Assembly: GCA_035949735.1 (NCBI GenBank)
Contig: DASYZC010000062.1
Location: 4,574 to 68,573 of the forward strand
Origin: Candidatus Acidiferrales bacterium
GTDB taxonomy: Bacteria; Acidobacteriota; Terriglobia; Acidiferrales; UBA7541
Direction of reading: 5' to 3'
DNA length: 64,000 nucleotides
Made by a program: the position numbers and the translations under genes. Position 1 is the stretch's first letter; each line of letters starts with the position of its first letter. Under the pieces are notes generated by a model. It ran no database searches and was not told the DNA's origin. It was given only the letters and a program-made list of their open reading frames with translations. Positions 1,732-47,175 of this stretch are shown here, piece after piece.

Positions 1732-1913
1732 TGCAATTCCCTTGTCAAAGCCGAGGCGCTCGGCTCTGTGACAGACAGTAATGGAGAGTTATCCGCCAAA
1801 GCAAGTTTATTCTGCTCTTGCATCTCGGCCACGAATTCTCGCACCAAAGCCGGTACGATGACGTTGTCGATCCACTCTTTCAAGCCCGGAGCGAGTTTTG
1901 GTACTGATTTCAT
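1728..1913 (-). CDS. Small hypothetical protein (61 aa) coupled to the recombinase gene; possible directionality/accessory factor
   Basis: ATGA stop/start overlap with the recombinase start at 1728-1731. No motif recognised. Confidence 0.4.
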   Translation of the reverse strand: MKSVPKLAPGLKEWIDNVIVPALVREFVAEMQEQNKLALADNSPLLSVTEPSASALTRELQ

Positions 1914-1969
1914 TCTGACCTTACAAAGAATGCAACAACCAACGCTGGAAAGGGTCTACGAAGGCATCC

Positions 1970-2866
1970 TCACTGTTCACGGCTGGGTTCGTTGCTGTGA
2001 ACTGCGGCATTCCCCGCGACTTGGTGCGTGGGCCTCGCGGATTGAAAATGGGCCTGCGCCTTCTCAACAGTGTGCCGTGCGTAGCCCGGATGCTTTTCCT
2101 CCCCGCGATAGTCCGCAATTCGCCGAATGATCTCTTCGGGATCGTCACCGCGAGCGAGGGCGCGTTTCGCGAATGCCCAATCCCGCTCTGACTGGGTGAT
2201 CTCGCCAGCAGGGGGGCTTGGTGCATCATGTGAGCGATATTGTGCCGGGGTCTCGTGAAGATCCGTGCGAAGCCTAAAGTCTTCGAGATGATATGTCTGC
2301 GTCGCCCCTGGTTGTGCCCTTACTACATGCTCCGTCGCATACTTCCGATTTACGAACTCTGGTAGTCGCAGAACGCGCGTAGAATCCGTGGCGGCGGGAT
2401 CGCCGCCGAATTCTCGTACCATCGCACGCTGAAGGGTTTCTGCTTGATCTTGTGCAATCCCCTCGACCTTCCAAACGACCTGATACTTTTCCGGCGATGT
2501 CTCAAGGACATAGTTGGGCCGTGGCACCAAGCCGGAAGTTTCGACTGCCTCCAGAGCTGACGGCCCGTTGCGGTCGATGTCGAGGTACAGATGCCGGATT
2601 GCTTCGATGTCCTCTTTGGTGCGACTTTGGGCATCGTGTCTGAGCGTGTTCATTCCTATGTACACATCAGAACTGACATTCTTGTGCCGGAGCCACGCCT
2701 GAAAATCCTGGCTGGCCGCATTCGTCGCCGTCGTGATCCGTTGAATCGTTTCGCCCGCTTTGCGACTCCGTACCAGCACAGCAATGCGGTCGGACGCTTC
2801 AAAGTTTTGAAGAATGTAGTCCGGCGCGGACAAGGAATCCAGTTTTGACTCCAGGTTAGAATTCAT
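1970..2866 (-). CDS. RepB'-type (RSF1010-like) DNA primase
   Basis: VLETSPEKYQVVWKV, GGDPAATDSTRVLRLPEFVNRKY and SDVYIGMN align from memory with the RepB' blocks VVETSPKNYQAWVKV, DADPASADSRHYGRLAGFTNRK and NDVYIRP. The helical C-terminal domain RDWAFAKRALARGDDPEEII also resembles RepB'. Confidence 0.75.
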   Translation of the reverse strand: MNSNLESKLDSLSAPDYILQNFEASDRIAVLVRSRKAGETIQRITTATNAASQDFQAWLRHKNVSSDVYIGMNTLRHDAQSRTKEDIEAIRHLYLDIDRNGPSALEAVETSGLVPRPNYVLETSPEKYQVVWKVEGIAQDQAETLQRAMVREFGGDPAATDSTRVLRLPEFVNRKYATEHVVRAQPGATQTYHLEDFRLRTDLHETPAQYRSHDAPSPPAGEITQSERDWAFAKRALARGDDPEEIIRRIADYRGEEKHPGYARHTVEKAQAHFQSARPTHQVAGNAAVHSNEPSREQ

Positions 2867-3837
2867 AACGGCTCTCGCTCACTCTGAAAGATCGCCGCGA
2901 AGTCGTACTCGTCCCGGTCTGGGTCGTACCCCTTGATCTCGACAACTTGGGAGACGAACCGCCTACCCGGACGACGTTCGAGCTGCACAACTACATTGAG
3001 TGAATAGCCTATGTTCGTCTTGATGGCGCGATAAGGCAGGTCCACGCCACTCTGGAGCACGCAGCTCGTGAAACGGGCCAGCGCCTGCCTCGCCGAAGTA
3101 GCGTGAACGGTTGAAAGACTGCCAGAGTGCCCGGTATTCAGAAGCTGGAGCAGGTCGAACGCCTCTCCCCCACGGATTTCGCCGAGGATGATTCTGTCGG
3201 GCCGATGGCGAAGAGCTGCTCTCAAGAGATCCCGAATCGTCACTGCCGGCAGCCCGTTCTGAGGCTGCCGGGCCTCAAACCGAACGAGATTTTGCTGCCC
3301 CATGTGAATCTCTGAGGTGTCCTCAATCAAGAGGATTCGTTCCTCCTCTGGTATGAACTTGCCGAGAATGTTCAAGAGGGTCGTTTTGCCACACCCGGTT
3401 CCGCCAGCAATGAGGATGTTCTTGCGTCCCAACACATAATCTTCGAGCTGGTTGGCGAGCCAGCGCTCCAAGCTCCCAGCGGTGACGAGATCGTCGATAC
3501 CAAAGTGGCGCGAATTGAACTTTCGAATGGTGAGGGTTACTCCGTTCAGGCTGCACGGAGGAATAACGGCGGCAACCCGACTCCCGTCTGGCAGCCGCGA
3601 ATCGAGGATCGGCTTGGCCTCGCAAATATCGTCACCAAGTCGCCGCGCAATGTTCTTTACCGCGATCATCAATGACTTTTCGCCGAGAGAAAGGCCACGG
3701 ACCTCCTCGATGAATCCGCCCCTTTCGATAAAGACATGGCTTGGGCCGTTTACCATGACCTCACTGATCGTTTCGTCGAGGATCAGGTGCTCTATGGGCT
3801 TGAGAAATGGAAGGATCATCTCGAATCCGTTCATCAC
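2863..3837 (-). CDS. virB11: VirB11/TrbB-family secretion ATPase
   Basis: Walker A ILIAGGTGCGKTTLLN; LLIEDTSE Walker B-like; GHSGSLSTVHA His-box. ATGA overlaps at both ends of the gene. Confidence 0.9.
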   Translation of the reverse strand: MMNGFEMILPFLKPIEHLILDETISEVMVNGPSHVFIERGGFIEEVRGLSLGEKSLMIAVKNIARRLGDDICEAKPILDSRLPDGSRVAAVIPPCSLNGVTLTIRKFNSRHFGIDDLVTAGSLERWLANQLEDYVLGRKNILIAGGTGCGKTTLLNILGKFIPEEERILLIEDTSEIHMGQQNLVRFEARQPQNGLPAVTIRDLLRAALRHRPDRIILGEIRGGEAFDLLQLLNTGHSGSLSTVHATSARQALARFTSCVLQSGVDLPYRAIKTNIGYSLNVVVQLERRPGRRFVSQVVEIKGYDPDRDEYDFAAIFQSEREPL

Positions 3838-32768: not shown

Positions 32769-35700
32769 TCAGTTTCGCGCGGGTGCTTTTGTAGCAGGCT
32801 CTGCTGCTGTGGTTTTTGAATTTCGGGCAGTTCGAGGTTCGACGCTCGCCTCGATGATGGCGCGTTCTTCTGGGGTCAAGACATAAAGATCATAGACGAG
32901 CCGGTCGATCTCCTTCTCCAGGGCCGTGGTGTCTGCGGCGTGATTACCCCGCTTAGCCTCAAGTACCTGAGCAACAAGCTTCGCAATTTCGTCTCGATGT
33001 TTGTGACCGTTTGAAGGCAGCGGAAAGTCCGCCAATTCATTCACTTTGAATTGTGGAAAGGTTTCGCGCTGCATCTTTCCGAATTTGTGAACGAACCACC
33101 ACGAAACCATCCGAGAATTCAAAACGCCAAGGACGTACTCAGGCTTTTCCCTTATGTTGATAATGTTCATGGAATTCAAATCGTTCAACGCTACTTCGTC
33201 CGTTAGGCAAGCATGGACACAGTAGGGCGGCTTGGCCGGAATCTGCCGTACCAAGATTCTCGCAGTTGAATACAGGCGAAAGTCCTTCCTTGGTGCGGCG
33301 AGGTTGTCGCCATATTTGAGATATTCTCCGCTCCAACCGAGGTAGTACCGGCAGACATCTTTTCCGTCGAAGTACTTGATGTAGTCTTTGCTGATTTTCC
33401 GCGTGTTGTGATAAACGCGTTCTTTCTTCATCTGGTTCGTCTGTGGCGGAACACCGCACCCCGTCTCGTAAGCTTTCAGACCGGCTCTAACATCGGCGAC
33501 CCCCGAAAGGGGCGCGGAATGTGCCTCGATCTTCTGCATTAGACTTGCTGTGCCCCCGGACTTGAACGCCTCGATATTGATGACGTACTCGCGCTGTTTC
33601 AGGAAGAACTCGGAATCAGCTTCCTTGATAAACCGGAAGTCGTCCGTGTATTCAAACAGGCGGACTCGATGATTGTGCGCAGACTTCGTGAAAATAAGGA
33701 TCGAACTGTCCACATCTGCACTCTCGAATACACGGGCATAAAAGTTGACGATGGAAACGTCCGATTGCCCAAGAACAAATTTCCGCATGGTCTTGTTCGT
33801 GTTGATCGTCAGCCAGTTATTCGGGGTAATAAAGCACAGCGAACCGGTTGGGCGAAGAAGCCTTGCGCCCTTCTCGACGAAGAGCGGGTAAAGATTCAAC
33901 TGATATTCAGCGAGTTCGTAATTCTTATAAAAGTACTTCTTGTCTTCGTCTGTGAATCCCTTCTTCGCGCTTTCTCTGGCGAAAATGTAAGGAGGATTCG
34001 CGATCACAACCGCAAATCCCTTTTTGTTATGAAATACTTCCGAAAAGTAGATTTCGAAATCGAATGCCTCCTTTCCGTTAGTCAGCGTATGGATGAGGTC
34101 ATCGATTTCTTTTTTATACCTCTCTTTCTGCCCCCTATCGGACTCGTCGAAGTAGAGCGGTTTCAACTCCTCTAGGCGGTGAAATAACTTTTCGTTGAAG
34201 AGAGTTTTTTCAATGCCGAAGAGCGAATTGCCCACGACCACTTTGTAGTCGAGATTTGGCAGCGGCTTAATCTGCGTCGTTTCTTCTTCGTCTACAACGA
34301 GGGAGAGCCAAAGCCGGAGTTTGGCTATCTCGATGGCACCTGGGTCAATGTCCACGCCATAGAGGGAATTCTGGATGGCGTGGCGTTTGAAATAGTAGGG
34401 CGTGCGCTCGTGCACGTCGTTGAAGTACGAAGTAAGAGCACAGCGAGCGCGAACAATTTCGGTCATCATTCCGACTGGGAATGCACCTGAACCGACTGCA
34501 GGGTCGCACACTGTGATCGCTGCTAGACTCTCATCCAGCAGCCGCGCTTGCTGTTGAATGCTTTTCGGCATCTTGATGGCGTACTTTGCCTCGACTGCCT
34601 CGTAGTGAGAGATCTGTTCGCCCAAATGCACAAACGTCTCGATGTCATCACGGGAGACGAGTTGCTTATTTGCGTTGAGCGCAGTATCGAGATAGTTGAC
34701 CAAACTTTCCTGACACATGTAGTGCACGATTTCGCGCGGCGTATAGTACGCACCCAAGCCTTTGCGCCGATTCTCTTCAATGAGGTTCTCGAACACTTTG
34801 CCAAGCATTTCAGGGTCGATGGCCACTTCCTTTTCGAGAGGCTCGGCTTCGTTAACGGTGAAGTTGTATCTGTCAAAAATGTCAAGGACGCCGGTGCCAA
34901 GGATGTCGCCCTCAAATTGCTTCGTGTTGGTGAACAAAGAATTTGGCAGAGGGATGTCGATTTTGCGCCAATCGTAGTCGCCGAGCGGTTCGAATAATCC
35001 GCCATTTAGGAATGGAATCCGGCATTGGAAGCGGTCGCACCATGCCGCGTGCCCCCGATCCGTCGCCAACGTGTCATAGAACAGCGGTTCGAGGACATCG
35101 TTGAAGAAGTTGTCATACTTACCCTTCTGCGCTGCAGCCAGTTGCCGTAAAAAGTCGTGCGGGCCAGCTCCCCAATCTTCGCCCTTCGGGACACCGAGCC
35201 AGCCCTTCTTCTGAAGAAAGTAGAGGAATACGATTTGGCCCATGAGCTTCTTCGCGAAGTCGATTATGTTGATGCGCTTCTTATTGAACTCTTGGCGGAT
35301 CGCTTTGTCCTTTTCAATCAGCACCTCCAGTGCTTTATGAATCTCGCCGAAGAGCTGCGCGTATTTGGTGAAGAATTCCTTCGTGACGGCTTCGACGCTG
35401 AAAGCCTCTTCGATATCAGCGAATGTCGGATTGGTTCCCGTATCTTGGAGCAACGCCAGAAAGCGAGTCTGGGCCGTGTGGCAGCTTTCGCCCTCACCAA
35501 CAAGGTAGGAGAAGCGCCGCGCCGGTGTGAGACGTGTTTCCACACCCACCTTGCCGGACTCACTCGCGACGCTGGCATAATCCATCTTCACATAAGAGAA
35601 TCGCCACTGCTTCTCGGTAGGCGACACAAACGCGACCAGGGCAGCGTCCTTTTCATCCCGCGTCTTGAGGTGGTCTGCAACGAAGTTTCGAATAGCCGTG

Positions 35701-35966
35701 CGAGCGCGTTCAAGTTTCGATGCTGTCGTGAGATATACAATCAAAACATCCAGTTTCTCGTTCTCCGCTGATGTGTACGTGCCCAGCCTTTCGTATCGTT
35801 GGACATGATCCTTGAACGCATCCTTGATGTATTGGCTATTCCAAGATCCTGCCTTGCTCTCGTCAATGCGATTAAGTACGTTTACCACGAAGCTGCCAAA
35901 GCGGGGTTTGTCAAAGGACTGGGTAAAGGTTTGGGCAATCAGGGTGCGGGCTTGGTCCCGATTCAT
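32769..35966 (-). CDS. Large Eco57I/PglX-like gamma-class N6-adenine DNA methyltransferase with C-terminal specificity region (1065 aa)
   Basis: GAYYTPREIVHYM, VCDPAVGSGAFPVG (SAM binding) and VIANPPYI (catalytic NPPY). ATGA overlap with the PLD-SNF2 gene stop. Confidence 0.85.
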   Translation of the reverse strand: MNRDQARTLIAQTFTQSFDKPRFGSFVVNVLNRIDESKAGSWNSQYIKDAFKDHVQRYERLGTYTSAENEKLDVLIVYLTTASKLERARTAIRNFVADHLKTRDEKDAALVAFVSPTEKQWRFSYVKMDYASVASESGKVGVETRLTPARRFSYLVGEGESCHTAQTRFLALLQDTGTNPTFADIEEAFSVEAVTKEFFTKYAQLFGEIHKALEVLIEKDKAIRQEFNKKRINIIDFAKKLMGQIVFLYFLQKKGWLGVPKGEDWGAGPHDFLRQLAAAQKGKYDNFFNDVLEPLFYDTLATDRGHAAWCDRFQCRIPFLNGGLFEPLGDYDWRKIDIPLPNSLFTNTKQFEGDILGTGVLDIFDRYNFTVNEAEPLEKEVAIDPEMLGKVFENLIEENRRKGLGAYYTPREIVHYMCQESLVNYLDTALNANKQLVSRDDIETFVHLGEQISHYEAVEAKYAIKMPKSIQQQARLLDESLAAITVCDPAVGSGAFPVGMMTEIVRARCALTSYFNDVHERTPYYFKRHAIQNSLYGVDIDPGAIEIAKLRLWLSLVVDEEETTQIKPLPNLDYKVVVGNSLFGIEKTLFNEKLFHRLEELKPLYFDESDRGQKERYKKEIDDLIHTLTNGKEAFDFEIYFSEVFHNKKGFAVVIANPPYIFARESAKKGFTDEDKKYFYKNYELAEYQLNLYPLFVEKGARLLRPTGSLCFITPNNWLTINTNKTMRKFVLGQSDVSIVNFYARVFESADVDSSILIFTKSAHNHRVRLFEYTDDFRFIKEADSEFFLKQREYVINIEAFKSGGTASLMQKIEAHSAPLSGVADVRAGLKAYETGCGVPPQTNQMKKERVYHNTRKISKDYIKYFDGKDVCRYYLGWSGEYLKYGDNLAAPRKDFRLYSTARILVRQIPAKPPYCVHACLTDEVALNDLNSMNIINIREKPEYVLGVLNSRMVSWWFVHKFGKMQRETFPQFKVNELADFPLPSNGHKHRDEIAKLVAQVLEAKRGNHAADTTALEKEIDRLVYDLYVLTPEERAIIEASVEPRTARNSKTTAAEPATKAPARN

Positions 35967-38900
35967 TTAGCCTCCAACAAATACGAGGAAAGGATCACTT
36001 CACGAGGGCTAAGGCCGTGCGGGTTTTGTTGTGCACGCGTAGCCTGGAAAAATAGCGCGGGGATGTCCCTTCGGAGAACGGCCAGCACCCTCAGCGGCTC
36101 GATCTCCGCTTTGAGGGCTTCAGCCACTTTCTTCGTCGTTGGACGAGGCAATGCTCCATCGACTAAGAGATGCATAACATCCTGCATGTAGCGTTCGTCA
36201 TCATCGGTGAATCCGTGATAGCGACGAATCTCTTTCGCCTTGAGGCGCTTCAATATGTAAGCGTCGTTCGCACCTCCTCTGTGCCCTTGAGTGCTATCGT
36301 CGAGATCCGCACTCGTCGCCTCGACGAACGCAGCCTTGCTCTTGTCGAGTAGGGTGTAAAAGTCAGCCGGGACGGATTGGCGCTTTTCGGACGGGTCGAG
36401 GGGTTTCAAGACTGTGGCGGCGGCGAAGAAATCAAGCTCACGAGACTTGGGACTGGTCGGTTCGGCCAGAAAGAATTTGTCCAGCTTCCCCTGGCGAAAG
36501 TAACTTAAAAGCGCCGGAAATCCCTTTGTCCCGCCCGTTGCTTCCTGAGTGACCTGCCTCGTCGAGCGTGCCTTTTTGGGTAGTCGTTTGATACGAGCAA
36601 ATAGCTCTGGATGTTTGTCGCGGACATCGCGAATCTCAGTCAAATATTCCAGTTCGCTCTGCTCCTCCTCGTCCTCGCCCGTGATCGTCTTCTTGGATGT
36701 CAGTTTCGCGAAGAGGTCATGTGATTTGATCTCCTCTCCCTCCGTGAGCAGGCGGGCGTCAGCGCCCAGCATTTCAATGAACGCCCGGATTTTCGCTTCG
36801 GCGGCTTCTTTCAACTTGATGAGGTCGTTGCTCTCGTCAGTTGGGAAAAAGTTGTAGGTGTGGATGGTGTCGAAAGTCGTATCGACACGGTTAACGCGTC
36901 CAACCCGCTGTATAAGCCGCGTTGGATTCCACGGGATGTCGTAATTGATCACGATATTGGAGCGATGCAGGTTAACGCCTTCGGAAAGCACTTCTGTGGC
37001 GACGAGAACCCGGTACTGATCTTTGGGATGAAAAGCACGTGCATCGAAGTTAGCGATGACTTCTTTGCGAACAGCCTCGTCAGAGCTACCGGTGAACAGC
37101 AGAACATCCTTTTCAACTTCATTTCTAATCTGTTCGGTAAGATATTCGGCAGTTTCCCTCGACTCCGTGAAGATAATCAGCTTGCCCTTCTTTAGCTTGG
37201 GTTCCCCGCGCAATACTTCACGGAAAGTGGCCCACTTGGGGTCGCGTTTAATCCGTTTCCAAAGGTCGGCAACTTCCCGGAGAATCTGGCGATCACTGTT
37301 CAAATCACGGATGAAATCAGCGCTGAACTCTTTAGCCTCCAAGGACTGGGCCTTTTCAGCTTCGAGCAGCCTGTCGATGCCTTCCTGGTCGTCGCTCTCC
37401 AGTAGATCGAAGACTTTGTTGATGTGCTTTTTGCTGATATAAACGTGGCCCTTGTGGTACTCGTCGATTACGCGGTCGTAGGACCGGATGAAGCGGTCGA
37501 GGGTTAAGCGGAACGCGTGAAAGCTGCTCTCAAGGCGTTTAATTAACAAAATCTTCATGAATTTCGCTAGGTTACGCTGGCTCTGCTTCTGTTGTTCCTC
37601 AATGTCGCCCTCGTAATACGTCAGCGGCTTGTAGCGAGCGTATGTGAAGTCTTTTGTCAGTAAGCGGATCGTCTCAAGGAAAACTTCGTTTTCAGCCTTG
37701 CTGAACTTATAAAACAAAGGCTGCGGATCAGTCACGTCCGGGAACTTCAGGCCCTGAAGATTGAGGTCTTCCCCGTAGTACTTCATGATTTCGGTTCTCG
37801 TGCGCCGAATCATCAGATGCTTCAGTACTTGCTCGCGGGTCGCCTTCGCGTTCGCCTGCACGGTATTGAAATACTGATCGCGGTCGGTCTGGCGGTCGAG
37901 TCCTTTGAGATTTTTCTCCAGAGTAGAAAAAAATGTCTCCAAGTTGCGAACGTTGGGAATTGTGCTGTTTTTCCCATTCTGGAACAATTTGACCTGGCTG
38001 AGAATGTCTCGGGGCGTATTGTTCATCGGTGTGGCCGAAACCAGAATGATGCGTTTGCCACGACAGATCTGCGCGAGCATTTCGTAGGTCTGAGTTGTTT
38101 CTGTACGAAAACGGTGAGATTCATCGATAAAGACGTTCGCGTACTTCGAGGTGTCGCGCTGAAGCAGGTCCTCAAGCTTCCCGAGGGACTCGAAATCCGT
38201 ATGAGGCACTCGGAAATCGCCGAAAACGTTTGGCCACGAGCCCGGGTTGTCTTTGTCTAGCAAGTGGGGCGGTGCAATTACGAGTGACCGTCCATTGAGT
38301 TGCTGGGCCAGCAACGCCGCCATGTACGTCTTGCCAAGGCCGACGACATCTGACAGGAACAATCCTCCGTATTCTTCGAGCACTTTCTTGGCACTCAAAA
38401 CGGCCTCTTCCTGATATTTCAGCCGCTTGAAATTGGTCGGAACATAAATGTCCTCCAATTCACTTGGCCGGTTCAATTCGTCACGGAAGTATTCATAGAG
38501 GAATTTTAAGTAGAGTTCGCGCGGTGTGAATTGCGCGAAAGGCGAGCGGTTAATGATCGTGTCCTCATACGGTTTGGACACGTCCACAGCAACTGCCCAG
38601 AGTTCGTTGAATTTCGCAAGGGCGAACTCATAGTCCGCCCGGTTCTTCAATTCGACGTTGAACTCCAAATTGTCTTGGAGACCCGATTGGCTCAGGTTGC
38701 TTGAACCAGTGATGACCCGACCCTTGTCCCTATCTCCTTCCGCGAAAGTCATGATGTAGACCTTTGCGTGCAAGTTCTCGGAGGCATGGGCCTTGACCTC
38801 CAGCTTCCCCGATCTCACCCACTCGACAAATTTGTGAACACCCGTTTCGACATCGGCGCTATCGGGAGATTTCTCAAGTTCATCGAGCACCTCATTGACG

Positions 38901-39208
38901 ACCTGTTCTTTCGTCGAAGCATGCGATTTGAGGGTCAGCTCTCCCTGTTCTTTCGCCCGCTGGAGCAGTTCGTACGCCTTACTGTCGGTTTTCAGGCCGA
39001 CCAAGATACGAATCTTCTCGATTTTCTCCAGGGTAGGGAACAGCTTGTAAAATCCGCTGATAAAAAAGTATCCAACCAAGCAATCGAAATAGCGGGTGTC
39101 TTCGGGTAGCAGATCCCCAAAGCGATCACGTAGGCTTTTGCCTGGTTCGTTTGTTAGAAACGTCAAATCAGATGACATAGGAGTCAGGATTGATCCCCCC
39201 GGCGTCAC
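35963..39208 (-). CDS. PLD-family nuclease domain fused to an SNF2-family helicase/translocase (1081 aa)
   Basis: HKD-type motif LHAKVYIM...GRVITGSSNLS. Helicase motifs DVVGLGKTYMA, FIDESHRFR, LVSATPMNN and WNPTRLIQRVGRVNR. Start is either GTG at 39208 (GGGGGAG upstream) or ATG at 39178. Confidence 0.85.
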   Translation of the reverse strand: MTPGGSILTPMSSDLTFLTNEPGKSLRDRFGDLLPEDTRYFDCLVGYFFISGFYKLFPTLEKIEKIRILVGLKTDSKAYELLQRAKEQGELTLKSHASTKEQVVNEVLDELEKSPDSADVETGVHKFVEWVRSGKLEVKAHASENLHAKVYIMTFAEGDRDKGRVITGSSNLSQSGLQDNLEFNVELKNRADYEFALAKFNELWAVAVDVSKPYEDTIINRSPFAQFTPRELYLKFLYEYFRDELNRPSELEDIYVPTNFKRLKYQEEAVLSAKKVLEEYGGLFLSDVVGLGKTYMAALLAQQLNGRSLVIAPPHLLDKDNPGSWPNVFGDFRVPHTDFESLGKLEDLLQRDTSKYANVFIDESHRFRTETTQTYEMLAQICRGKRIILVSATPMNNTPRDILSQVKLFQNGKNSTIPNVRNLETFFSTLEKNLKGLDRQTDRDQYFNTVQANAKATREQVLKHLMIRRTRTEIMKYYGEDLNLQGLKFPDVTDPQPLFYKFSKAENEVFLETIRLLTKDFTYARYKPLTYYEGDIEEQQKQSQRNLAKFMKILLIKRLESSFHAFRLTLDRFIRSYDRVIDEYHKGHVYISKKHINKVFDLLESDDQEGIDRLLEAEKAQSLEAKEFSADFIRDLNSDRQILREVADLWKRIKRDPKWATFREVLRGEPKLKKGKLIIFTESRETAEYLTEQIRNEVEKDVLLFTGSSDEAVRKEVIANFDARAFHPKDQYRVLVATEVLSEGVNLHRSNIVINYDIPWNPTRLIQRVGRVNRVDTTFDTIHTYNFFPTDESNDLIKLKEAAEAKIRAFIEMLGADARLLTEGEEIKSHDLFAKLTSKKTITGEDEEEQSELEYLTEIRDVRDKHPELFARIKRLPKKARSTRQVTQEATGGTKGFPALLSYFRQGKLDKFFLAEPTSPKSRELDFFAAATVLKPLDPSEKRQSVPADFYTLLDKSKAAFVEATSADLDDSTQGHRGGANDAYILKRLKAKEIRRYHGFTDDDERYMQDVMHLLVDGALPRPTTKKVAEALKAEIEPLRVLAVLRRDIPALFFQATRAQQNPHGLSPREVILSSYLLEAK

Positions 39209-39511: not shown

Positions 39512-40123
39512 GTGCGATCATATCTGTTGCAAGCAGCGACTAAATTGCAGAAGAGAGCCGCAAAAAACATGCTCAAACAATCAGCGATGACACGCCCGCT
39601 TTTCGAGGAGCCTTCAGATGGAATTGAGAGGACAGAGCCGTTTTCCGGCCCGAAGGGATTCATGTTTGGCGGAATGTGTTCTGCAACGAAACAGCAGCTA
39701 GGGCAGCATTATTTTGAGGCGGCGGACCTTCTTATCCGCGCGATCAAACGTAATGAATTGGAGGACTACAAGCTAGCTCACCCAGTGTTTTTTCTATACC
39801 GTCATTCCATTGAGCTGACGCTCAAAAGTCTAATCGAATGGATGGAATCTCCAGATGTCTGGGGGCACAATCTTGCATCGCTAGCTGATCGGTTTGAAAC
39901 GGCTGTGCAGCGGAAATTCGGGCAGGAAGTGCCGAGTTGGATAATAGACCGGATAAAAGAGATTGCTGTAATGGACCCTGGTTCCACAACCTTCCGCTAC
40001 GACGATGCTCAGAACGATGGTGAGATGTATGTATCTCTGGTACACCTCCAAGAAGTGATGAAAGGATTGAACTCAGCCCTGTGCTCAGTATGGGTTCATC
40101 TGCTTCGTGAATCTGCAGAGTAA
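39512..40123 (+). CDS. Hypothetical protein with HEPN-like helical signature
   Basis: FFLYRHSIELTLKSLIEW...GHNLASL resembles the canonical HEPN helix pair, but no R-x4-6-H motif is evident. The start is uncertain; internal Met codons occur at MLKQSAM and MTRPLF. Confidence 0.4.
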   Translation: MRSYLLQAATKLQKRAAKNMLKQSAMTRPLFEEPSDGIERTEPFSGPKGFMFGGMCSATKQQLGQHYFEAADLLIRAIKRNELEDYKLAHPVFFLYRHSIELTLKSLIEWMESPDVWGHNLASLADRFETAVQRKFGQEVPSWIIDRIKEIAVMDPGSTTFRYDDAQNDGEMYVSLVHLQEVMKGLNSALCSVWVHLLRESAE

Positions 40124-40135
40124 TAGTTGGTGCTA

Positions 40136-41140
40136 TCACTGCTGAAGCTTCGGCTGTTGTTTTACACAGAGCGCAGTCGGCGCGGAATTCACAATGAAAT
40201 CCATATGAGCCTTCAGTATAGGAAAGACAGATGTTTCCTTCCCCGCGAGAGTCAGAGAGATCGTGCCAGCGCAGCACCTGCGAGACTCACTGCCTTTCGA
40301 GACTTTGCCTGAAAGATGGCTAGGTTCAGTGGATGGCAGTTGACTGGCACAGTGCTCTGACAACTGAGTACACAGGATGCGAATGTTGGTCGAGAGACTA
40401 CGCACTGCGGCGACAATTTCGGGTCTTGGCGTATCGTATCTGCCTCGGCCAATCGAAAAGATCAACGCTTCCGGCTTGCTCGCGTTGTAGAAGCTAGTCG
40501 CGAAACTTGACAGATCTGTGCTCGCTGGTCCTCCGCCATGATGTGGGAACACTGCGATCTCCGCCGAAATGTCAGGGCTACTCTCTAGAAGATTCGCCAA
40601 TCCGATTTCGTCAATATCTCCCGGAAGCAAAAGCAGTGGCTTGCCATCCCTCAACAGACGGACGATTGCACTGCTCGAATTGCTCGTTAGCTTTCTCCCT
40701 TTGTGGTCGTGGCTTCCTGGTCCTTTGACTGCAAGACCAGGGCTTGGAGCCAAAATCTCGACCTTAATCCTTGCCGTGTCGAAGTTCCCGGTTTGATTGG
40801 TGGTTAAGCCGACGTCGAAGCGAATCCTCCCCGCCTTATTTGCTTCATCCAAGAGATACGTCAAATCGTTCCAGGTTGGCGAGCCCTTCAGTGCGTCAGA
40901 ATTGATTCGCACAATATGCACCGCGACCGTTTGTGACTCCAAAAGGCTCACCAGACCCTTTATGTGGTCCTCGTCGGCGTGAGAGATGAGCACAACGCCA
41001 ACTTCTTTGATCCCCTCTTTCTCTAGAAAATCGAGCAATGTGGTTCCCGGACCCGCATCAATCACGACAACTTTGTCGTCAATTAGAACAGCGCAATTCC
41101 CGTGGCCGACATCCAGTATTGAAACCGTTGGTTCGGTCAT
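40136..41140 (-). CDS. ComEC/Rec2-type metallo-beta-lactamase-fold hydrolase (putative nuclease), 334 aa
   Basis: ILDVGHGNCAVLI and VVLISHADEDHIKGL match the SHxDxDH signature of the ComEC-type MBL domain. LLLPGDI and FPHHGG are further metal-ligand-like motifs. ATGA overlap with the upstream gene. Confidence 0.75.
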   Translation of the reverse strand: MTEPTVSILDVGHGNCAVLIDDKVVVIDAGPGTTLLDFLEKEGIKEVGVVLISHADEDHIKGLVSLLESQTVAVHIVRINSDALKGSPTWNDLTYLLDEANKAGRIRFDVGLTTNQTGNFDTARIKVEILAPSPGLAVKGPGSHDHKGRKLTSNSSSAIVRLLRDGKPLLLLPGDIDEIGLANLLESSPDISAEIAVFPHHGGGPASTDLSSFATSFYNASKPEALIFSIGRGRYDTPRPEIVAAVRSLSTNIRILCTQLSEHCASQLPSTEPSHLSGKVSKGSESRRCCAGTISLTLAGKETSVFPILKAHMDFIVNSAPTALCVKQQPKLQQ

Positions 41141-41823
41141 TTTGATTTGCTCTTAACTGGAAACTCAAAATTAGTGAAGAATAGAGCTTCGGGCTGCTCC
41201 GCCCCCTTGTTGACACTCGCAAAAAAACGTACCCCTGGCTTGATGAGCCTCCTGCGCCGGTACGGAATAAGGTCTAACGGCAGTCGGATAATTTCTTTGG
41301 AATCCCATCCTGGAATTGCGACGTAGAACAATGCAGGTTTGGAACTCGTCTCGACCGATTCAACGCGCACCAGCGTTCGCCACGCTCTCCTGCTCGGAAC
41401 AGGTGCACTCTTGAACTCACTTATGCATCGTGCGAAACCAGTCGCAATCGTATCGGGATTGATCTCGTCGATAGATATAAGAGACGGTATGAATGGAATG
41501 TATTGGCGGATAGCGTCAATGTCCGCCGTGCTCCAACGCGTACACAGGACTGCCGGGCACTGAGCGTTATAGAGCTCGGCGACGGCTTCTGCTCCGTTAA
41601 ACGCCGCGTAGTGGCCCTTCTTGAGACGGTGATCACTGACCACCGCATCAGCGTGTTTCTTCGTGGAGGCGACAAAGGTGCTCAGCTTTGGCAAGGGTCC
41701 GTCAGCGGGCAGTGCCTCAAGGTTCGCATCTGTGATTGTGAATGCCATCGCCTGCCTGGCCGTGGGGTCGTCGTCAATGACCTTTACCCGCGAAATAGTT
41801 TGACCAAATATGTTCAGAGCCAT
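41137..41823 (-). CDS. Receiver (REC)-like domain protein with unknown C-terminal domain (228 aa)
   Basis: Start MALNIF at 41823. VKVIDDDPTARQ (acidic pocket), AVVSDHRL (candidate phospho-Asp) and AVLCTRW (Thr). The conserved Lys is not evident. The C-terminal ~90 aa are unassigned. Confidence 0.6.
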   Translation of the reverse strand: MALNIFGQTISRVKVIDDDPTARQAMAFTITDANLEALPADGPLPKLSTFVASTKKHADAVVSDHRLKKGHYAAFNGAEAVAELYNAQCPAVLCTRWSTADIDAIRQYIPFIPSLISIDEINPDTIATGFARCISEFKSAPVPSRRAWRTLVRVESVETSSKPALFYVAIPGWDSKEIIRLPLDLIPYRRRRLIKPGVRFFASVNKGAEQPEALFFTNFEFPVKSKSK

Positions 41824-41824
41824 T

Positions 41825-43897
41825 TCATTTTCCAAGAATGGGGAGCTCCACCATGAAAGAAGCCCCTCCAAGATCGCCATGCGCCTGAGCCTTAACCGTT
41901 CCTCCCAGATCCTTTACCGCATCGTGAACGATGGTCAGCCCTAATCCGGTTCCGTTTGGTCGCGTTGTCTCGCCTGCAAGCCAGACATCATCTGGATCGA
42001 TTCCTTCGATTCCGGGACCATTGTCATCAAACCGAATCCGCAGGTTCCCATTAGCAACTTCCGTTCGAATTCCGATCTTGTATTTCTTAACCTGAACTTT
42101 CTCGAACCAGACGAGGCTGTTGTTCAAGAAATTCGTAACAATCGATTCGATTGCGGCCTTGCTTCCTCTCAAGTACGGCTTCCCGCCCGCAAGCTCGGTT
42201 GCGACCTCAACATCCCGTTCTTTGAAAAACGGCTCATACGTTTTGACGACCGACTCGATTATTTCGTGTATCTCTACTTGACTCGCTCTCCTCTTCTCGT
42301 GATCAAGCAGACTAAACGTCACATTGCCCAACACTTTCATTGCGTCCGTCGAGCGAATGATGAGTTCTACCGGTTCCGCCAAGGTATCGTTGTACCTATC
42401 GCCGAGTTCCTTTCTCGCTCTTCTTTCAATCGACTTAGCAGCTTGGTCGATGGCTTTGATCGGATTGCCCGCCGACTCATGGGCGAACGTGGCAGCAGTA
42501 ATTCCGGCAGTGCTCAAAGTACGGTAGAGTTGCACTTCCTTGCGAAGAGTCTTTATTTCTTTCTCTCGAACCACTTCGTATTTCTTGAAAGCTTGTTTGA
42601 TCGCCCGCCGCTTCGGAGCAGGCACTCGTTCGATTGCCTCCTTAATCTCCAGCTTGGCCTTTACGGTTCGCTTCGGGGCTTCCACCCTGTCACTAGCACG
42701 CCGCTTCAAAGCCTCCTTCATTCTGCATCGCGCCATCCATTCAAGCGCATCGTTAGCAAACCTTTTCAGTTCGAGGAATGCGTCATTCTCAATGAATCCC
42801 GACCGGTCAGTCTTCTGAGCGAGTCGGCCTCCAGTTTCGAAGGTTGAGACTCGTCCAATCGAGGTGTTTGTCGAAGGCCGCTCTTCGGGGCTGCGTGCCC
42901 TCCTTAAGTTCATGTCCAGCCAATCATTCCCAGGGTTTCCGTACGGACTGACGCGCAGACCATTCTGATAAAGATGCACACCGCCAAAGTGCCCGAGCCA
43001 CTCGCGCACTTCTTCGACGGAAGAAGTCCTGGTCGAAAAAGTCGCCTTGTTTAGAATGAAGACCCAGAGGTCAAACTGAGCTTCGGACGACGCGTATTTT
43101 GGATGCCCTGGTCCTGTACTGATCTCGGCATGTTTCGCGCTGAAAAGAGTCTTGCCCTTCCAGTCGGTGATGACCGCTCTCGCCGTACCATCTTTGTCCA
43201 GGTTTGCAGAAAGATGAAATTCAGCGTCCTCAAAGTACCGCGCTTTGACTAGCTTCTCCAAATCTGAGAATTCAGAAGCTTTCAAGACCGGCCTAAACCC
43301 CTCGGGATCGTCTCCAAAGGGATCGGCCAACAGAATCATTGCCCGCGCTAATCTGCTTACTTCCGCACGGGTGACGACAGCGCGGAGCTCGTCAATCGTG
43401 ACTACCGTGCCGGACGTCCCGCCGTTCTTGCGTGTGCTTCCTTCAACCGAGAGCGGTACTTCTTCTACTACCTGCGCCGCGTCATACTTTGACCAGTCAA
43501 TTGTGAGAAGGAACTCGCGCTGAGGAGCGGCGAGCGGCCAACTTCGCAACGTTGCTGAGTGCCCTAGTCGCAACGCTGCCAATCGCCCCAGTCCCTTACT
43601 TCCGGCTGGAACTCTGTTCAACCGTGTTCGCTGCTCTGGATTTCGGCCAGAGCGCCCGAGGATCAGCCAGCCATTAATGATTCCTTCTGCGTCCATGCCG
43701 TCGCCATTGTCGGAAATTTCAATCGTTCCTCCCATTTTTTCGGTGTTGCGCAACACAACCGTGCACTCTCTAGCGCTCGCATCAAAAGAGTTTTTGACAA
43801 GCTCAAGAATGCTCTGGTCGAGGCTCGGATTGAGTTCCTCTCCGAGGCGTCGCAGGATATCTGGCGAAAATCTGAGGGAAGTCGATGTATCTGTCAT
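41825..43897 (-). CDS. Dual GHKL protein: N-terminal MORC/Hsp90-like ATPase module plus C-terminal histidine-kinase transmitter (DHp + CA), 690 aa
   Basis: N-terminal module: ELVKNSFDA (N-box), ISDNGDGMD (G1), GSKGLGRLA (G2). A coiled-coil linker follows. C-terminal module: FAHESAGNP (H-box), NFLNNSLVW (N), DDNGPGI (G1), GTGLGLTIV (G2). The start ATG at 43895-43897 overlaps the MTase stop as ATGA. Confidence 0.75.
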   Translation of the reverse strand: MTDTSTSLRFSPDILRRLGEELNPSLDQSILELVKNSFDASARECTVVLRNTEKMGGTIEISDNGDGMDAEGIINGWLILGRSGRNPEQRTRLNRVPAGSKGLGRLAALRLGHSATLRSWPLAAPQREFLLTIDWSKYDAAQVVEEVPLSVEGSTRKNGGTSGTVVTIDELRAVVTRAEVSRLARAMILLADPFGDDPEGFRPVLKASEFSDLEKLVKARYFEDAEFHLSANLDKDGTARAVITDWKGKTLFSAKHAEISTGPGHPKYASSEAQFDLWVFILNKATFSTRTSSVEEVREWLGHFGGVHLYQNGLRVSPYGNPGNDWLDMNLRRARSPEERPSTNTSIGRVSTFETGGRLAQKTDRSGFIENDAFLELKRFANDALEWMARCRMKEALKRRASDRVEAPKRTVKAKLEIKEAIERVPAPKRRAIKQAFKKYEVVREKEIKTLRKEVQLYRTLSTAGITAATFAHESAGNPIKAIDQAAKSIERRARKELGDRYNDTLAEPVELIIRSTDAMKVLGNVTFSLLDHEKRRASQVEIHEIIESVVKTYEPFFKERDVEVATELAGGKPYLRGSKAAIESIVTNFLNNSLVWFEKVQVKKYKIGIRTEVANGNLRIRFDDNGPGIEGIDPDDVWLAGETTRPNGTGLGLTIVHDAVKDLGGTVKAQAHGDLGGASFMVELPILGK

Positions 43898-45189
43898 TGG
43901 TCGCCCCAAGGAAGATCACTGAGGGACGACACTGTTAAATGGCGGCAGCGAATACGTTGATCAAGATATTCATTCGCTCTCTGCTCCTTAAGAACCGCCA
44001 AAAGCCGCTCGCAACTTGCCACTTTGCGATCTCTCGGTCGGAGAACCAGCAAGTGGTTCTCGACAGCAATGCGGCGGCGACCCCGGATGACAGTTCCGAC
44101 GGCCCTATTCTTGTCGCCTGGACGAGATGTTCTCCTAACAACGACGAACGGAGGCCGAAAGGTTTTGCCGTTGAATCTCCTATGGTGGCAAAACTCAGAA
44201 ACAACTTCCCACGAGGGTAAATCGCGGGCCTGGATGAAAGGGAACCAAGCGCCCTCGTGCGGATCGCGATAAGAGACGACCGCTCCGACCGAGACCTCAA
44301 ATTTGTCTCTCACGCGCGAACCGCTGTGTTTGCGAGGAATCCAATCAAATCTGGATGTGGATTTGTCTTTCTTCCTTATTTGTCCAACTGCTAGGAACAC
44401 GTCTACGTCCGTGTCGCGGTCGAATTGACCAACGATTTGTATCTTTCGGAGAGCGACTCTTTCCTCAAAGAGAAGTCGCCACTTCGCATACCTGGAACCG
44501 CTTCGAAGAACGTCTGGCAGAATCGCGATAATTTCGGTGCCGGGATCGGAGCGCGATACACAAGCGTCCACGAATAATGCTGCAGAGTTAACCTTGCCGC
44601 TCCCCCACGAACACGCCTCGGGCGCATCGACAGGTGTAAACGGAGGGTTAATCAGAATGTGCGTTGCCTGTCTGTAAAGATTCTCCTCACTCAAACTTGA
44701 TCCTAAGCCAACTCCGGGAAACAGCTCGTCAAGGTTCGGTATTCTTGTCCGGTGACCTGGTGATTGGCGTCGGATGGCAGCGAGCGCCAAGCGGAGCTTT
44801 GTGGCCCTGACGAAATTCGCCTGAAGATCAAGAGCAAAAATGCGCTGTCCCCAATCCCGCAGCGTTGACGTGAGATCAAAAGAACACGGAAGTAGCCCTG
44901 CCATCGCAACTAGGAGGTCCCCCGCGCCACAGGCGGGATCAAGCACGGTCACGTCGGGCGTGAGACGCAAACCAGCCGCGCTGATCGCGAGCTTTGCCAT
45001 CGCCGAACCTGTAAAGAATGCCCCGGTTTCACGAAGAACATCAATCGGAACTTGGCGACGAAGTTCGGCGGACGGCTGTCCATCCAAAGCGGCGTCCAAG
45101 TCCTCCGGGAACGCGGCGTCTCGCACCGGTCGCATCGACCTGTGAAGAAGTTCTTCTAATCGAACCACATATGGGCGAAATGCTTCCAT
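43894..45189 (-). CDS. Gamma-class N6-adenine DNA methyltransferase (431 aa), first gene of the four-gene operon
   Basis: VLDPACGAGDLLVA (motif I) and ILINPPF (motif IV). The C-terminal ~170 aa could be a target-recognition domain. Confidence 0.8.
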   Translation of the reverse strand: MEAFRPYVVRLEELLHRSMRPVRDAAFPEDLDAALDGQPSAELRRQVPIDVLRETGAFFTGSAMAKLAISAAGLRLTPDVTVLDPACGAGDLLVAMAGLLPCSFDLTSTLRDWGQRIFALDLQANFVRATKLRLALAAIRRQSPGHRTRIPNLDELFPGVGLGSSLSEENLYRQATHILINPPFTPVDAPEACSWGSGKVNSAALFVDACVSRSDPGTEIIAILPDVLRSGSRYAKWRLLFEERVALRKIQIVGQFDRDTDVDVFLAVGQIRKKDKSTSRFDWIPRKHSGSRVRDKFEVSVGAVVSYRDPHEGAWFPFIQARDLPSWEVVSEFCHHRRFNGKTFRPPFVVVRRTSRPGDKNRAVGTVIRGRRRIAVENHLLVLRPRDRKVASCERLLAVLKEQRANEYLDQRIRCRHLTVSSLSDLPWGDQ

Positions 45190-45336
45190 GTGAGAATCAT
45201 ATATATAACAGACCAGCTCGACCCGGAAGAAGGATATCCTGGTTGCGTCCTGTCCGACGACGGGTAGCCACGTGCGGCCTGAACGGGATTTGGCTCAGCC
45301 GACAACCCAGGCTAAACGCTCGGGCGGATTTGGAGG

Positions 45337-45359
45337 CGCGATACGCATCGCGATACGCA
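45337..45359 (+). repeat. Tandem 11-mer CGCGATACGCA x2 (12-nt period) near the right ICE end
   Basis: Copies at 45337-45347 and 45349-45359. A 13/14 match, CGCGATTCGCATCG, occurs at 19-32 in the left flank. Confidence 0.6.
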
Positions 45360-45616
45360 ATAACGTTGGTCTATGACATACTTCCAATGACTTGCCGAGC
45401 CGTCCGTGCTCTTCCACGTCGTTGAAAGTACTGATAACCCGCTAACTGTCACGGCACGGGTCCCAATTCGAGCGTCCGGTTCCCGCCGGAACTCAGCGTC
45501 CATTAACCGCTGGCTTGTACGCTCCCATTCTCCCCCCTGCAAATGAGGGACTTAGGCAGCGGAATGAATCAATTCGCTGCGGAACGGTATGCTCAAGAAT
45601 TGTCTATTCGGTACGT

Positions 45617-45633
45617 ATCGGGCCCCCGCAACC
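45617..45633 (+). repeat. Right copy of the 17-nt direct repeat ATCGG(G)CCCCCGCAACC; candidate attR core
   Basis: See 78-94. It lies in a 570-bp region with no convincing gene, between the last cargo gene and the chromosomal efflux operon. Confidence 0.5.
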
Positions 45634-45759
45634 GAAACAAGTTTTTCCTTTCGAGAACCCTGTGTTCCCGTACAGCGATCCAAAGCCGCAGGGCGAGCGG
45701 AAGCGGCCGTCCCTTGGCTCAAAGGATTGTGTCGGAGCACGCGCCTCACTGCGGGAGCT

Positions 45760-47175
45760 TCATTTCTCCGGTCTCTGAGGGTTTTTGTTGAGGGCTGGAG
45801 AATTGGCATTGATCGGGAACACCTCGCCGGGGGCAAGCGGGCGTTGGACGGCGTCTTCGAGGTCGCCCAAAGCTCGCTGTGCATGAGCTAGTGCGTCTAG
45901 TTTCGCGCTGGCCAAAACGGAAAGTTGAATCTGGGCTCCGTCGAGACTGAAACGATAATCAGCGCCGGCGCGGATTGCCTGCTGAATCACCTGCAGTTGG
46001 GTTTCTTGTATTTGATAAAGGGATTGGGCCTCGCTTATTTCCTTCAGTGCGGCGGCGTAGACCGCAAGCGCGCGTTCGCTTTTTTCGATCACTTGGGCCT
46101 GAGTTTTCAAGAACGCAGCCGCTGCTTCCTTGCGGCGACCCTCAGCTTCGGCTATCGGTCCCTGGTTGCGGTTGAAGACAGGCAGAGTGGTTGAGAGGCC
46201 GATGGTAAAGAAGTTGTTTCGCTCCTCATAGGTGTATCCCGGACCGAGGTTGAAGTTTGGATATTGCCTCGCGATCTCTAGTTTGAGATCCGCGTCTGCA
46301 GCCGCGTATTGTGCAAGCGAACGCCGCACATCTAGTCGATTTAGGACCGCATCACCTTGGATTTTCACCGGCGAGAGGGATTCCGAGTTCGGGGGTATGC
46401 CCATATCCGGCCATGAGAGGTCAGCTCCGTCCAGCCCCGCGACCGGAATGCCGATGGTGGCAGCTAGAGCAGCCTTGGAATCGGCAACTTGGCCCTCAGC
46501 CGCACGGATAGCCACTTCTGTTTTCAAAAGCTGAATCTTTGTGACATCCACATCCACTCTGGTTATTCCTCCCACCGACAATTGCCGCTCCAAAATCCTG
46601 ACTTGATCTTCTCGGGCCTTTTCCTGCGAGCGGAGCAATTCTAAATTTCGAGAGGCAACAAGATAATTCAGCAGCGCGAGACGAACGCCCATCACGACGG
46701 TCCAAGCGGAATCCGCAAGATCAAATTCGGCCGCTCGATTAAGGTCCTGGGCGATCTGAACGCGATGCCCTCGCTTGCCCGCCGTCTCGATGGGAAGGAG
46801 AAAATCCAGCGACAGGAGGTAGGGACTCGGGATACCAGGGGCGAAATCCAACGTGGGATTTGGCCGGGCGCTCGCCGTCACTATAGCTCCCTCGGCGGTG
46901 GCAAGACGTGCCCGAGTGACGTCTAAAGTCAGATTGAAGTACAAGGCAGCAAGCGACAATGTTTGCAGGTCCCAACTCTTGGGCGGCCAAGGCGACATCT
47001 GCCGACATAGACTCTTTTCCTCAAAAGATCGAATGCCCGCATCGGCGAGACTCCGCGATTGAAAGCGGAAAGCAGTTGCGCTGGGAACGATAGGAGCGGG
47101 CTGATATCGCTGCGCAGCACACCCAGCCAGCCAGAAAATTGCGAACAAAGCGATTCGTCTGCCGATTAGACTCAT
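45760..47175 (-). CDS. TolC/NodT-family outer-membrane efflux lipoprotein
   Basis: Lipobox FWLAGC. Two long helical repeats typical of outer-membrane factor proteins. It is the last gene of the efflux operon. Confidence 0.8.
   Translation of the reverse strand: MSLIGRRIALFAIFWLAGCAAQRYQPAPIVPSATAFRFQSRSLADAGIRSFEEKSLCRQMSPWPPKSWDLQTLSLAALYFNLTLDVTRARLATAEGAIVTASARPNPTLDFAPGIPSPYLLSLDFLLPIETAGKRGHRVQIAQDLNRAAEFDLADSAWTVVMGVRLALLNYLVASRNLELLRSQEKAREDQVRILERQLSVGGITRVDVDVTKIQLLKTEVAIRAAEGQVADSKAALAATIGIPVAGLDGADLSWPDMGIPPNSESLSPVKIQGDAVLNRLDVRRSLAQYAAADADLKLEIARQYPNFNLGPGYTYEERNNFFTIGLSTTLPVFNRNQGPIAEAEGRRKEAAAAFLKTQAQVIEKSERALAVYAAALKEISEAQSLYQIQETQLQVIQQAIRAGADYRFSLDGAQIQLSVLASAKLDALAHAQRALGDLEDAVQRPLAPGEVFPINANSPALNKNPQRPEK

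Follow-up and report, generated by a model that had tools for sequence, protein, structure and literature searches.

The 64,000-nucleotide stretch of contig DASYZC010000062.1 (assembly GCA_035949735.1, Candidatus Acidiferrales bacterium) analyzed here, called the window below and numbered from its first letter, contains on its minus strand an operon of four co-directional genes that encode an N6-adenine DNA methylase, a histidine kinase, a receiver protein, and a hydrolase of the metallo-beta-lactamase (MBL) fold (Table 1). The four genes are translationally coupled: the methylase stop overlaps the kinase start (ATGA), the receiver ATG lies 1 nucleotide past the kinase stop, and the MBL start overlaps the receiver stop (ATGA). 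The kinase is confirmed to be a soluble histidine kinase with a second, MORC/MutL-like ATPase in the sensor position, and it belongs to a four-gene cassette in which the kinase is obligatorily linked to an adenine methylase and a ComEC-type MBL hydrolase. By the textbook account, two-component systems sense environmental signals and respond through transcription; the superfamily to which this kinase belongs would employ His-Asp chemistry within a module for immunity or restriction whose input is a MORC-like ATPase.

The kinase open reading frame (ORF) runs from an ATG at 43897 to a stop at 41827-41825, and the plus strand of the same interval is closed by stops in the frame read. An alternative TTG start four codons upstream of the ATG is possible; the orthologue alignment starts at the ATG. 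An earlier reading, made from the sequence only, had seen two Bergerat-fold ATPase modules in this one protein, and Pfam places both far beyond chance, with HATPase_c_3 at residues 27-148 (E 2e-17, 63.9 bits, cutoff 25) and HATPase_c at residues 581-687 (E 8e-18, 65.3 bits, cutoff 26.4). All seven motifs quoted in that reading are present, namely ELVKNSFDA (residues 32-40), ISDNGDGMD (61-69), and GSKGLGRLA (99-107) in the head, and FAHESAGNP (471-479), NFLNNSLVW (589-597), DDNGPGI (624-630), and GTGLGLTIV (649-657) in the C-terminal half. Beyond the two HATPase domains, nothing in the kinase matches Pfam at E <= 10, and this includes PAS, GAF, HAMP, and HisKA. The statement that no PAS, GAF, or HAMP sensor is present therefore agrees with Pfam, and the expected profile matches were obtained for the two ATPase families and not for HisKA, whose model is not reached.

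An AlphaFold2 model built from 60 homologues (pLDDT 82.9, pTM 0.75) arranges the chain as an alpha/beta GHKL domain (about residues 1-190), a further alpha/beta domain (about 200-370), long helices, a hairpin bearing H473, and a catalytic and ATP-binding (CA) domain at residues 538-690. By profile and by its ATP-site residues, the head is assigned to the MORC/MutL class of Bergerat ATPases. A profile built on the first 375 residues matches MORC3 (1.7e-6) and MORC2 (2.8e-6) best in the PDB, followed by MutL (6.5e-5) and, more weakly, by TRAP1, HtpG, Hsp90, PMS2, and Topo VI-B, with all of these matches confined to residues 21-149; the MORC/Hsp90-like GHKL module of the sequence-only reading is thus recovered. 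The ATP-site residues are E32/N36/D39 in motif I, D63xGxG67 in motif II, and G99xKGLGR105 in the lid. In addition, the NCBIfam family of BbrUII/HgiDII restriction enzymes (NF050001) matches residues 13-186 below its cutoff (E 5e-16), and PADLOC REase_II models match the N-terminus (4e-8). The likeness to these type II restriction enzymes is limited to the GHKL head, that is, to roughly the first 180 residues, and at 58 bits against a cutoff of 550 it falls far from membership; the enzymes have their own nuclease and no kinase. Because the head matches their N-terminus, this ATPase is already in use in DNA-cleaving restriction proteins.

The middle domain that follows carries the hallmark FGGVHLYxNGLRVxPYGNPGNDWLDMNLRR...QKTDRSGF, and its residues D325, W326, and R365 are invariant throughout the kinase superfamily sampled. 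It has no family match in Pfam and no sequence match in the PDB. The model gives a beta3-alpha-beta-alpha order at residues 227-304, and this strand order and the invariant R365 are suggestive pointers, and only suggestive ones, that the domain may be an S5-like transducer, the domain by which MORC-type ATPases present a basic residue to the gamma-phosphate. From here, two very long helices, of 52 residues (372-423) and 38 residues (427-464), join the ATPase head to the dimerization and histidine phosphotransfer (DHp) region, in the place where a Lys/Glu-rich coiled coil had been read from the letters.

The DHp region is modeled as helices at residues 427-498 and 507-530, with H473 as the predicted phospho-acceptor (codon at 42479-42481). 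Its H-box, FAHESAGNP, aligns with those of ZraS and HK853 apart from one residue inserted between His and Pro, and the model has a low-confidence kink at residues 474-477. The C-terminal 240 residues align, H-box included, with ZraS, HK853, CpxA, and FixL chimeras, and residues 449-687 give sub-threshold NCBIfam matches to AtoS, ZraS, and similar kinases. Foldseek finds the DHp and CA fold in CpxA, HK853, and ZraS at E of about 1e-13; when the full kinase model is searched against the PDB, histidine-kinase DHp and CA structures are the only matches. The H-box proposed earlier and the DHp hairpin are supported by this agreement of alignment, model, and fold search and by the invariance of H473. 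In the CA domain, the N box (N589/N593), the G1 box (D625xGxG629), and the G2 box (G649xGxG653) are all present.

Both Pfam domains recur in more than 120 database proteins of 56-100% identity and near-equal length. In 60 aligned orthologues, the invariant positions comprise E32, N36, D39, D63xGxG67 (D63, G65, G67), and G99xKGLGRL (G99, K101-R105) in the head; W300...G305G306...Y319G320...D325WL...R340P...K362TDR365 in the middle domain; and H473, N589, N593, D625xGxG629, and G649xGLGL in the kinase half, where E474, next to H473, is at least 90% conserved. Searched exhaustively with a profile, 1.84 billion representatives yield, at E <= 1e-30, 2,810 clusters (50% identity), which are found in most bacterial phyla and on plasmids; about 65 of them are orthologue-level (>550 bits), and many others are full-length at 300-440 bits. 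A distant sample of 53 full-length relatives (21-28% identity, six from plasmids) has HATPase_c_3 and HATPase_c in every member, and both ATP sites, D325, W326, R365, and H473 are invariant there. Because these features are invariant even in distant relatives, both ATPase modules and the phospho-accepting His are under selection across the superfamily. Among phage records, the only full-length distant kinase homologue was found on one short contig from human feces, the unannotated 5.4-kb Bacteriophage sp. contig MT838277.1 (positions 1396-3426; 26% identity over 99% of the query, E 1e-33), and these records give no sign that phages carry the cassette.

The first gene of the operon encodes the methylase, whose motif I (DPACGAG, residues 84-90) and motif IV (NPPF, residues 181-184) are at least 90% conserved in 30 orthologues. 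It matches Pfam N6_Mtase weakly (E 0.002) and the PADLOC models mad2 (1e-10) and MTase_II (2e-8), and has no PDB match at E <= 1; its conserved C-terminal region may be a target-recognition domain. Directly before the methylase ATG, at 45190-45225 on the minus strand, lies the AT-rich TGTTATATATATGATTCTCAC, in which no Shine-Dalgarno sequence is evident. A sigma-70 consensus scan of 39900-45800, which includes the 570-bp spacer upstream of the operon, found no promoter site, and terminator-like sites in the same interval are at chance level.

The receiver protein is taken from the ATG at 41823, and a longer ORF of 247 residues is probably not used. Its AlphaFold2 model (pLDDT 95.3) has a REC fold at residues 1-138, for which the Foldseek matches are receiver domains (8e-7, TM-score of about 0.7), and its conserved residues include the acidic pair D17/D18, the phospho-acceptor D64, and T95. 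The invariant R106 might stand in for the beta5 Lys that this receiver family has lost, and the DxRL...FNG motif past the phospho-accepting Asp also occurs in the receiver of an HNH-type cassette (locus L048). The C-terminal domain, residues 148-228, is modeled as all-beta, with five strands and one short helix. No helix-turn-helix (HTH), winged HTH (wHTH), LytTR, or Response_reg_2 (PF19192) domain is found in the receiver in Pfam at E <= 10, and the isolated C-terminal domain has no credible match in Pfam or the PDB.

The last gene encodes the MBL hydrolase, in which the motifs HxDxDH (H54/D56/D58/H59) and H200-H201 are conserved. It matches Pfam Lactamase_B (1.4e-11) and, below the cutoff, NCBIfam ComEC/Rec2 (1.4e-9), and ComEC MBL domains are its only significant solved relatives (5e-9). 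Its PADLOC matches are generic, to the MBL parts of LmuA, RTasMBL, and Avs1a. Four cysteines in the C-terminal third, C257, C264, C290, and C325, are at least 90% conserved; they could be a zinc site of structural function or a redox element, of a kind that ComEC lacks.

Table 1. Features of the cassette, its kinase, and its surroundings. Positions are those of the window unless a locus is named.
Feature	Position	Strand	Basis or remark
N6-adenine DNA methyltransferase, 431 residues	43894..45189	minus	first gene of operon; motifs, Pfam, PADLOC
Dual-GHKL sensor histidine kinase, 690 residues	41825..43897	minus	second gene of operon
Kinase residues 1-190, assigned as MORC/MutL-type HATPase_c_3 Bergerat ATPase	43328..43897	minus	Pfam, PDB profile, invariant residues
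Kinase residues 195-370, conserved alpha/beta middle domain	42788..43315	minus	conservation, AlphaFold2 model
Kinase residues 372-464, two long Lys/Glu/Arg-rich helices	42506..42784	minus	AlphaFold2 secondary structure
Kinase residues 465-535, DHp helical hairpin with H-box FAHESAGNP	42293..42505	minus	conservation, alignment, Foldseek
Kinase residues 538-690, histidine-kinase CA domain	41828..42286	minus	Pfam HATPase_c 8e-18, alignment, Foldseek
Receiver protein, 228 residues	41137..41823	minus	AlphaFold2, Foldseek, conservation
ComEC-type MBL-fold hydrolase, 334 residues, presumed nuclease effector	40136..41140	minus	Pfam, NCBIfam, PDB
Protein with weak HEPN match, 203 residues	39512-40123	plus	E 0.005, below cutoff
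PLD(HKD)+SNF2 helicase fusion, 1081 residues	within 32769-39208	minus	PADLOC C3a139 HKD+Snf2 2e-45; DrmD-like 3e-37
Eco57I/TaqI_C type IIG-like methylase, 1065 residues	within 32769-39208	minus	PADLOC PDLC03596 1e-248
N4/N6 methylase, 280 residues	31903-32745		next to PLD-SNF2/type IIG-like module
Non-orthologous adenine methylases of other loci	L017:9766-11592; L024:4037-5470; L029:9612-11324; L030:9216-10859		

With a single genome scanned per species, the cassette was found at 37 loci, which span more than 12 phyla plus one plasmid; the hosts include Acidobacteriota, Planctomycetota, Bacteroidota, Actinomycetota, Cyanobacteriota, Verrucomicrobiota, Spirochaetota, Myxococcota, Latescibacterota, Armatimonadota, Gammaproteobacteria, and others. 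The order methylase-kinase-receiver-MBL occurs in 33 of the 37 loci, some of which are truncated by contig ends. When the flanking ORFs were clustered, the four cassette genes were the sole recurrent genes and the flanks were unrelated; no fifth conserved gene, such as one for an XRE regulator, was found in the 37 loci, in a comparison that did not search the 570-bp upstream spacer for small ORFs. In the four loci that have no orthologous methylase (L017, L024, L029, and L030), another adenine methylase, either of the Eco57I type or an N6_N4_Mtase-Mrr (Mrr_cat) fusion, abuts the cassette, and in L035 the orthologous methylase is encoded downstream, on the other strand. The kinase is the most conserved member of the cassette, with 45-89% identity versus 31-86% for the others, and identity of the cassette across phyla is 45-60%. 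The plasmid NZ_CP095070.1 of Hymenobacter volaticus holds the cassette in the same order, annotated as N-6 DNA methylase, sensor histidine kinase, hypothetical protein, and MBL fold metallo-hydrolase.

The cassette is therefore a mobile unit of patchy distribution, and its surroundings in the window are a defense island, with the PLD-SNF2 gene, the type IIG-like methylase, the N4/N6 methylase, and the weak HEPN protein of Table 1. The patchy spread over many phyla, the unrelated flanks, the plasmids, the defense island, and the decayed copies together argue for a mobile defense or addiction module and not for a housekeeping one. In several loci, the kinase or MBL gene is split into two ORFs (L001 8758-9740, L004 5989-8073, L010 9218-9739, and L036/L037), which could be real decay or assembly indel errors. 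The kinase match of L030 begins at residue 157 with a gene for an ISAZ013-family transposase upstream, and this locus is perhaps a decayed copy.

The sequence-only reading had called the kinase architecture unusual, and this is not the case: its superfamily comprises about 2,800 clusters (50% identity, E <= 1e-30), and it was published in 2021 (Bellieny-Rabelo, Pretorius & Moleleki 2021; PMC8011034). In that work, the order HATPase_c_3, HEF_HK (DHp), and HATPase_c was found in 174 of 222 proteins; 91.6% of these HK-like kinases were linked to an RR-like gene (Response_reg_2), and genes of restriction-modification (R-M) systems, namely C5 methylases, Vsr, and HNH, were enriched around them. The set was 70% Proteobacteria, the Lys of the RR-like proteins was reported to be conserved, and a relationship of the HK-like kinases to paraMORCs was proposed (PMC8011034). 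The window pair shares with the published pairs a paraMORC-type GHKL domain, a DHp region with a conserved His-Glu, an HK-type GHKL domain, solubility without transmembrane or PAS segments, an adjacent receiver gene, and linkage to a methylase and a nuclease. Furthermore, the window kinase aligns end to end with the kinase of a Burkholderia glumae plasmid (28% identity, E 6e-49), private middle-domain motifs included, and the neighbors of the latter are an RR-like gene, Vsr, and Dcm.

There are also differences from these pairs. The window kinase and receiver miss PF19191 and PF19192 even at E <= 10, they are accompanied by an N6-adenine methylase and an MBL hydrolase where the published pairs have a C5 methylase together with Vsr or HNH, the receiver is without the conserved Lys and has another C-terminal domain, and the clade is found mainly in Acidobacteriota, Planctomycetota, Bacteroidota, Actinomycetota, and others. 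Because the window kinase misses the two families and yet aligns with the B. glumae kinase, it forms a separate branch of the HK-like superfamily. PF19191 and PF19192 are likewise not matched by the 53 distant superfamily members or by the B. glumae pair, and these models may be narrow or missing from the Pfam copy used.

A second comparison is with prokaryotic MORCs and paraMORC1-5, which are GHKL ATPases that occur in R-M operons (Iyer, Abhiman & Aravind 2008; PMC2292703). Like these proteins, the window kinase has at its N-terminus an HATPase_c_3 domain whose ATP motifs are intact and, after it, another conserved domain, and it is encoded with methylases and nucleases in sporadic, laterally mobile loci. 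However, the described paraMORCs end in S5 and a nuclease, TIR, or unknown extension, whereas the window protein ends in DHp and CA, and its output would be phosphotransfer instead of direct recruitment.

The closest tested system is Ambrosia, a set of five genes (AbrR-AbrA-AbrB-AbrC-AbrD) from Pseudomonas aeruginosa that blocks phage and is known from Gammaproteobacteria only (bioRxiv 10.1101/2025.09.30.679545). All of its genes and the phospho-accepting Asp of its receiver are needed, its cluster reporter genes are induced upon infection, and transcriptional control was proposed (bioRxiv 10.1101/2025.09.30.679545). As likened by description, Ambrosia and the window cassette have in common, and in the same order, an N6-adenine methylase, a histidine-kinase/HSP90-like ATPase, a receiver, and a nuclease, and both join R-M components to a two-component pair. 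However, the XRE regulator AbrR has no counterpart among the conserved genes of the 37 window-type loci, the AbrC receiver has a wHTH where the window receiver has an orphan beta-domain, and AbrD is a type IV HNH nuclease, whereas the nuclease candidate of the window is a ComEC-type MBL.

Plasmids with homologous kinases show related arrangements: XRE, Eco57I-type methylase, kinase, response regulator (RR), and HNH in Deinococcus gobiensis; kinase, RR, HNH, and Eco57I-type methylase in Bacteroides finegoldii; and Dcm, kinase, and RR in Acaryochloris and C. jejuni. The HNH arrangement of the D. gobiensis and B. finegoldii plasmids is that of Ambrosia. An hhalign comparison of the window receiver with the Bacteroides HNH-type receiver gives 91% probability over residues 43-142 only, which is the REC part and includes DxRL...FNG, and the C-terminal domains of the two differ. 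Because these two receivers have the REC part alone in common, the output domain appears to switch together with the nuclease.

Overall, the kinase architecture itself is not new, and the four-gene MBL cassette is what differs from published systems; again by description, it looks like an undescribed, nuclease-swapped relative of Ambrosia. A literature search found no paper describing the MBL version, and PADLOC has no system model for the cassette and none for the kinase or receiver, giving only generic matches to parts. Since the cassette is absent from PADLOC 2.0 and annotated only as kinase, hypothetical protein, and MBL, it is invisible to current defense-system annotation.

From these observations, we lean toward the view that the kinase is the sensor of a self-contained, horizontally mobile, four-gene defense cassette linked to methylation. 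The methylase would mark host DNA, and the MORC/MutL-like head with the middle domain would act as an ATP-driven dimerizing clamp that senses foreign or unmodified DNA, or another infection cue. Closure of the head would travel along the long helices to the DHp region, where the CA domain would then autophosphorylate H473, and the phosphoryl group would move from H473 to D64 of the receiver. The receiver beta-domain would in turn bind and license the MBL nuclease post-translationally, and the MBL protein would degrade invader DNA. Such licensing of the MBL protein is probably direct, given the missing HTH of the receiver, the lack of a conserved regulator gene, and an output domain that varies in step with the nuclease.

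That DNA sensing feeds a phosphorelay, as the sequence-only reading had proposed, is suggested by the MORC/MutL relationship and by the obligatory methylase and nuclease neighbors. The more specific form of the proposal is phosphorelay-gated restriction, in which the head senses DNA, and perhaps its methylation, and the phosphorylated receiver activates the ComEC-type DNase after translation and not through transcription; this is put forward tentatively, as a possibility held with less than even confidence. Methylation, ATP-driven DNA clamping, and phosphotransfer would then jointly time the firing of the nuclease, a proposal that is equally tentative.

Several points weigh against the preferred reading. 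The MBL fold also includes hydrolases that are not nucleases. The defense role of the window cassette is a predicted one, neither the kinase nor the receiver fits a PADLOC system model, and DNA binding by the head is putative, with the PDB matches stopping at residue 149, short of the putative S5/transducer domain. The receiver is without the canonical beta5 Lys, I112-P113 replacing Lys-Pro, and its phosphochemistry may be atypical. Its beta-domain could bind nucleic acid and not the nuclease, as the modeled order beta1-3/alpha/beta4-5 would fit an OB-like barrel; the basis of this OB-like reading is strand order alone. As to Ambrosia, its authors favor transcriptional control, and its methylation gave phage no protection from the system (bioRxiv 10.1101/2025.09.30.679545). 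Because methylation was not protective there, the logic by which methylated DNA counts as self may be wrong for the family.

These points lead to the alternatives. All-beta DNA-binding output domains, of the LytTR type, exist in response regulators, and the strand order of the receiver beta-domain is compatible with a nucleic-acid-binding barrel; the phosphorylated receiver might therefore bind DNA through this domain and turn on transcription of the methylase and nuclease, so that the nuclease would be controlled by expression. This is the model proposed for Ambrosia, whose reporters are induced upon infection (bioRxiv 10.1101/2025.09.30.679545). However, Pfam gives no HTH, wHTH, or LytTR signal in the receiver, the isolated beta-domain has no match in Pfam or the PDB, and the cassette has no conserved regulator gene, of the XRE type or otherwise. 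In addition, a single coupled operon must already be expressed to sense anything, and an output domain that is swapped together with the nuclease suits a protein partner better than a promoter, and we consider transcriptional control of this kind rather unlikely.

The relationship of the head to MutL, the Vsr and Dcm genes that adjoin relatives of the kinase as repair-type partners, and the action of ComEC-type MBL domains on DNA in transformation would be compatible with a role in DNA housekeeping or epigenetics, either as a MutL-like methyl-directed repair or recombination system whose GHKL head recruits the MBL exonuclease, or as methylome-responsive signaling. The patchy spread over many phyla at 45-60% identity, the unrelated flanks, the plasmids, the defense island, and the decayed copies speak against such a role, as does the anti-phage activity of the nearest tested relative, and it appears quite improbable. 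Finally, there may be no real phosphorelay, in which case the kinase half and receiver would be structural relics and a two-headed ATPase scaffold would recruit the nuclease directly. The loss of the canonical receiver Lys, the one-residue insertion in the H-box with the low-confidence kink at residues 474-477, and the failure of the DHp region to reach any Pfam HisKA model could be read in this way. However, H473, the N, G1, and G2 boxes, and the receiver acidic pair, D64, and T95 show little or no variation from phylum to phylum, which would be unexpected in relics, and the phospho-accepting Asp of the Ambrosia receiver is essential; a relic is accordingly a very improbable explanation.

Neither a regulator gene nor an output domain that binds DNA was found in the MBL cassette, and because of this it is the version best suited to asking two questions cleanly: whether a His-Asp relay can gate a nuclease directly, and what a prokaryotic MORC-type head senses. 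The second of these also bears on the eukaryotic MORC proteins in genome defense.

Some further genes of the window lie downstream of the cassette. The gene for the protein with the weak HEPN match is convergent with the operon, its stop lying about 12 nucleotides from the MBL stop, and it is not conserved with the cassette elsewhere. The genes for the PLD-SNF2 fusion and the type IIG-like methylase overlap by 4 nucleotides (35963-35966) and form a second R-M-like module.

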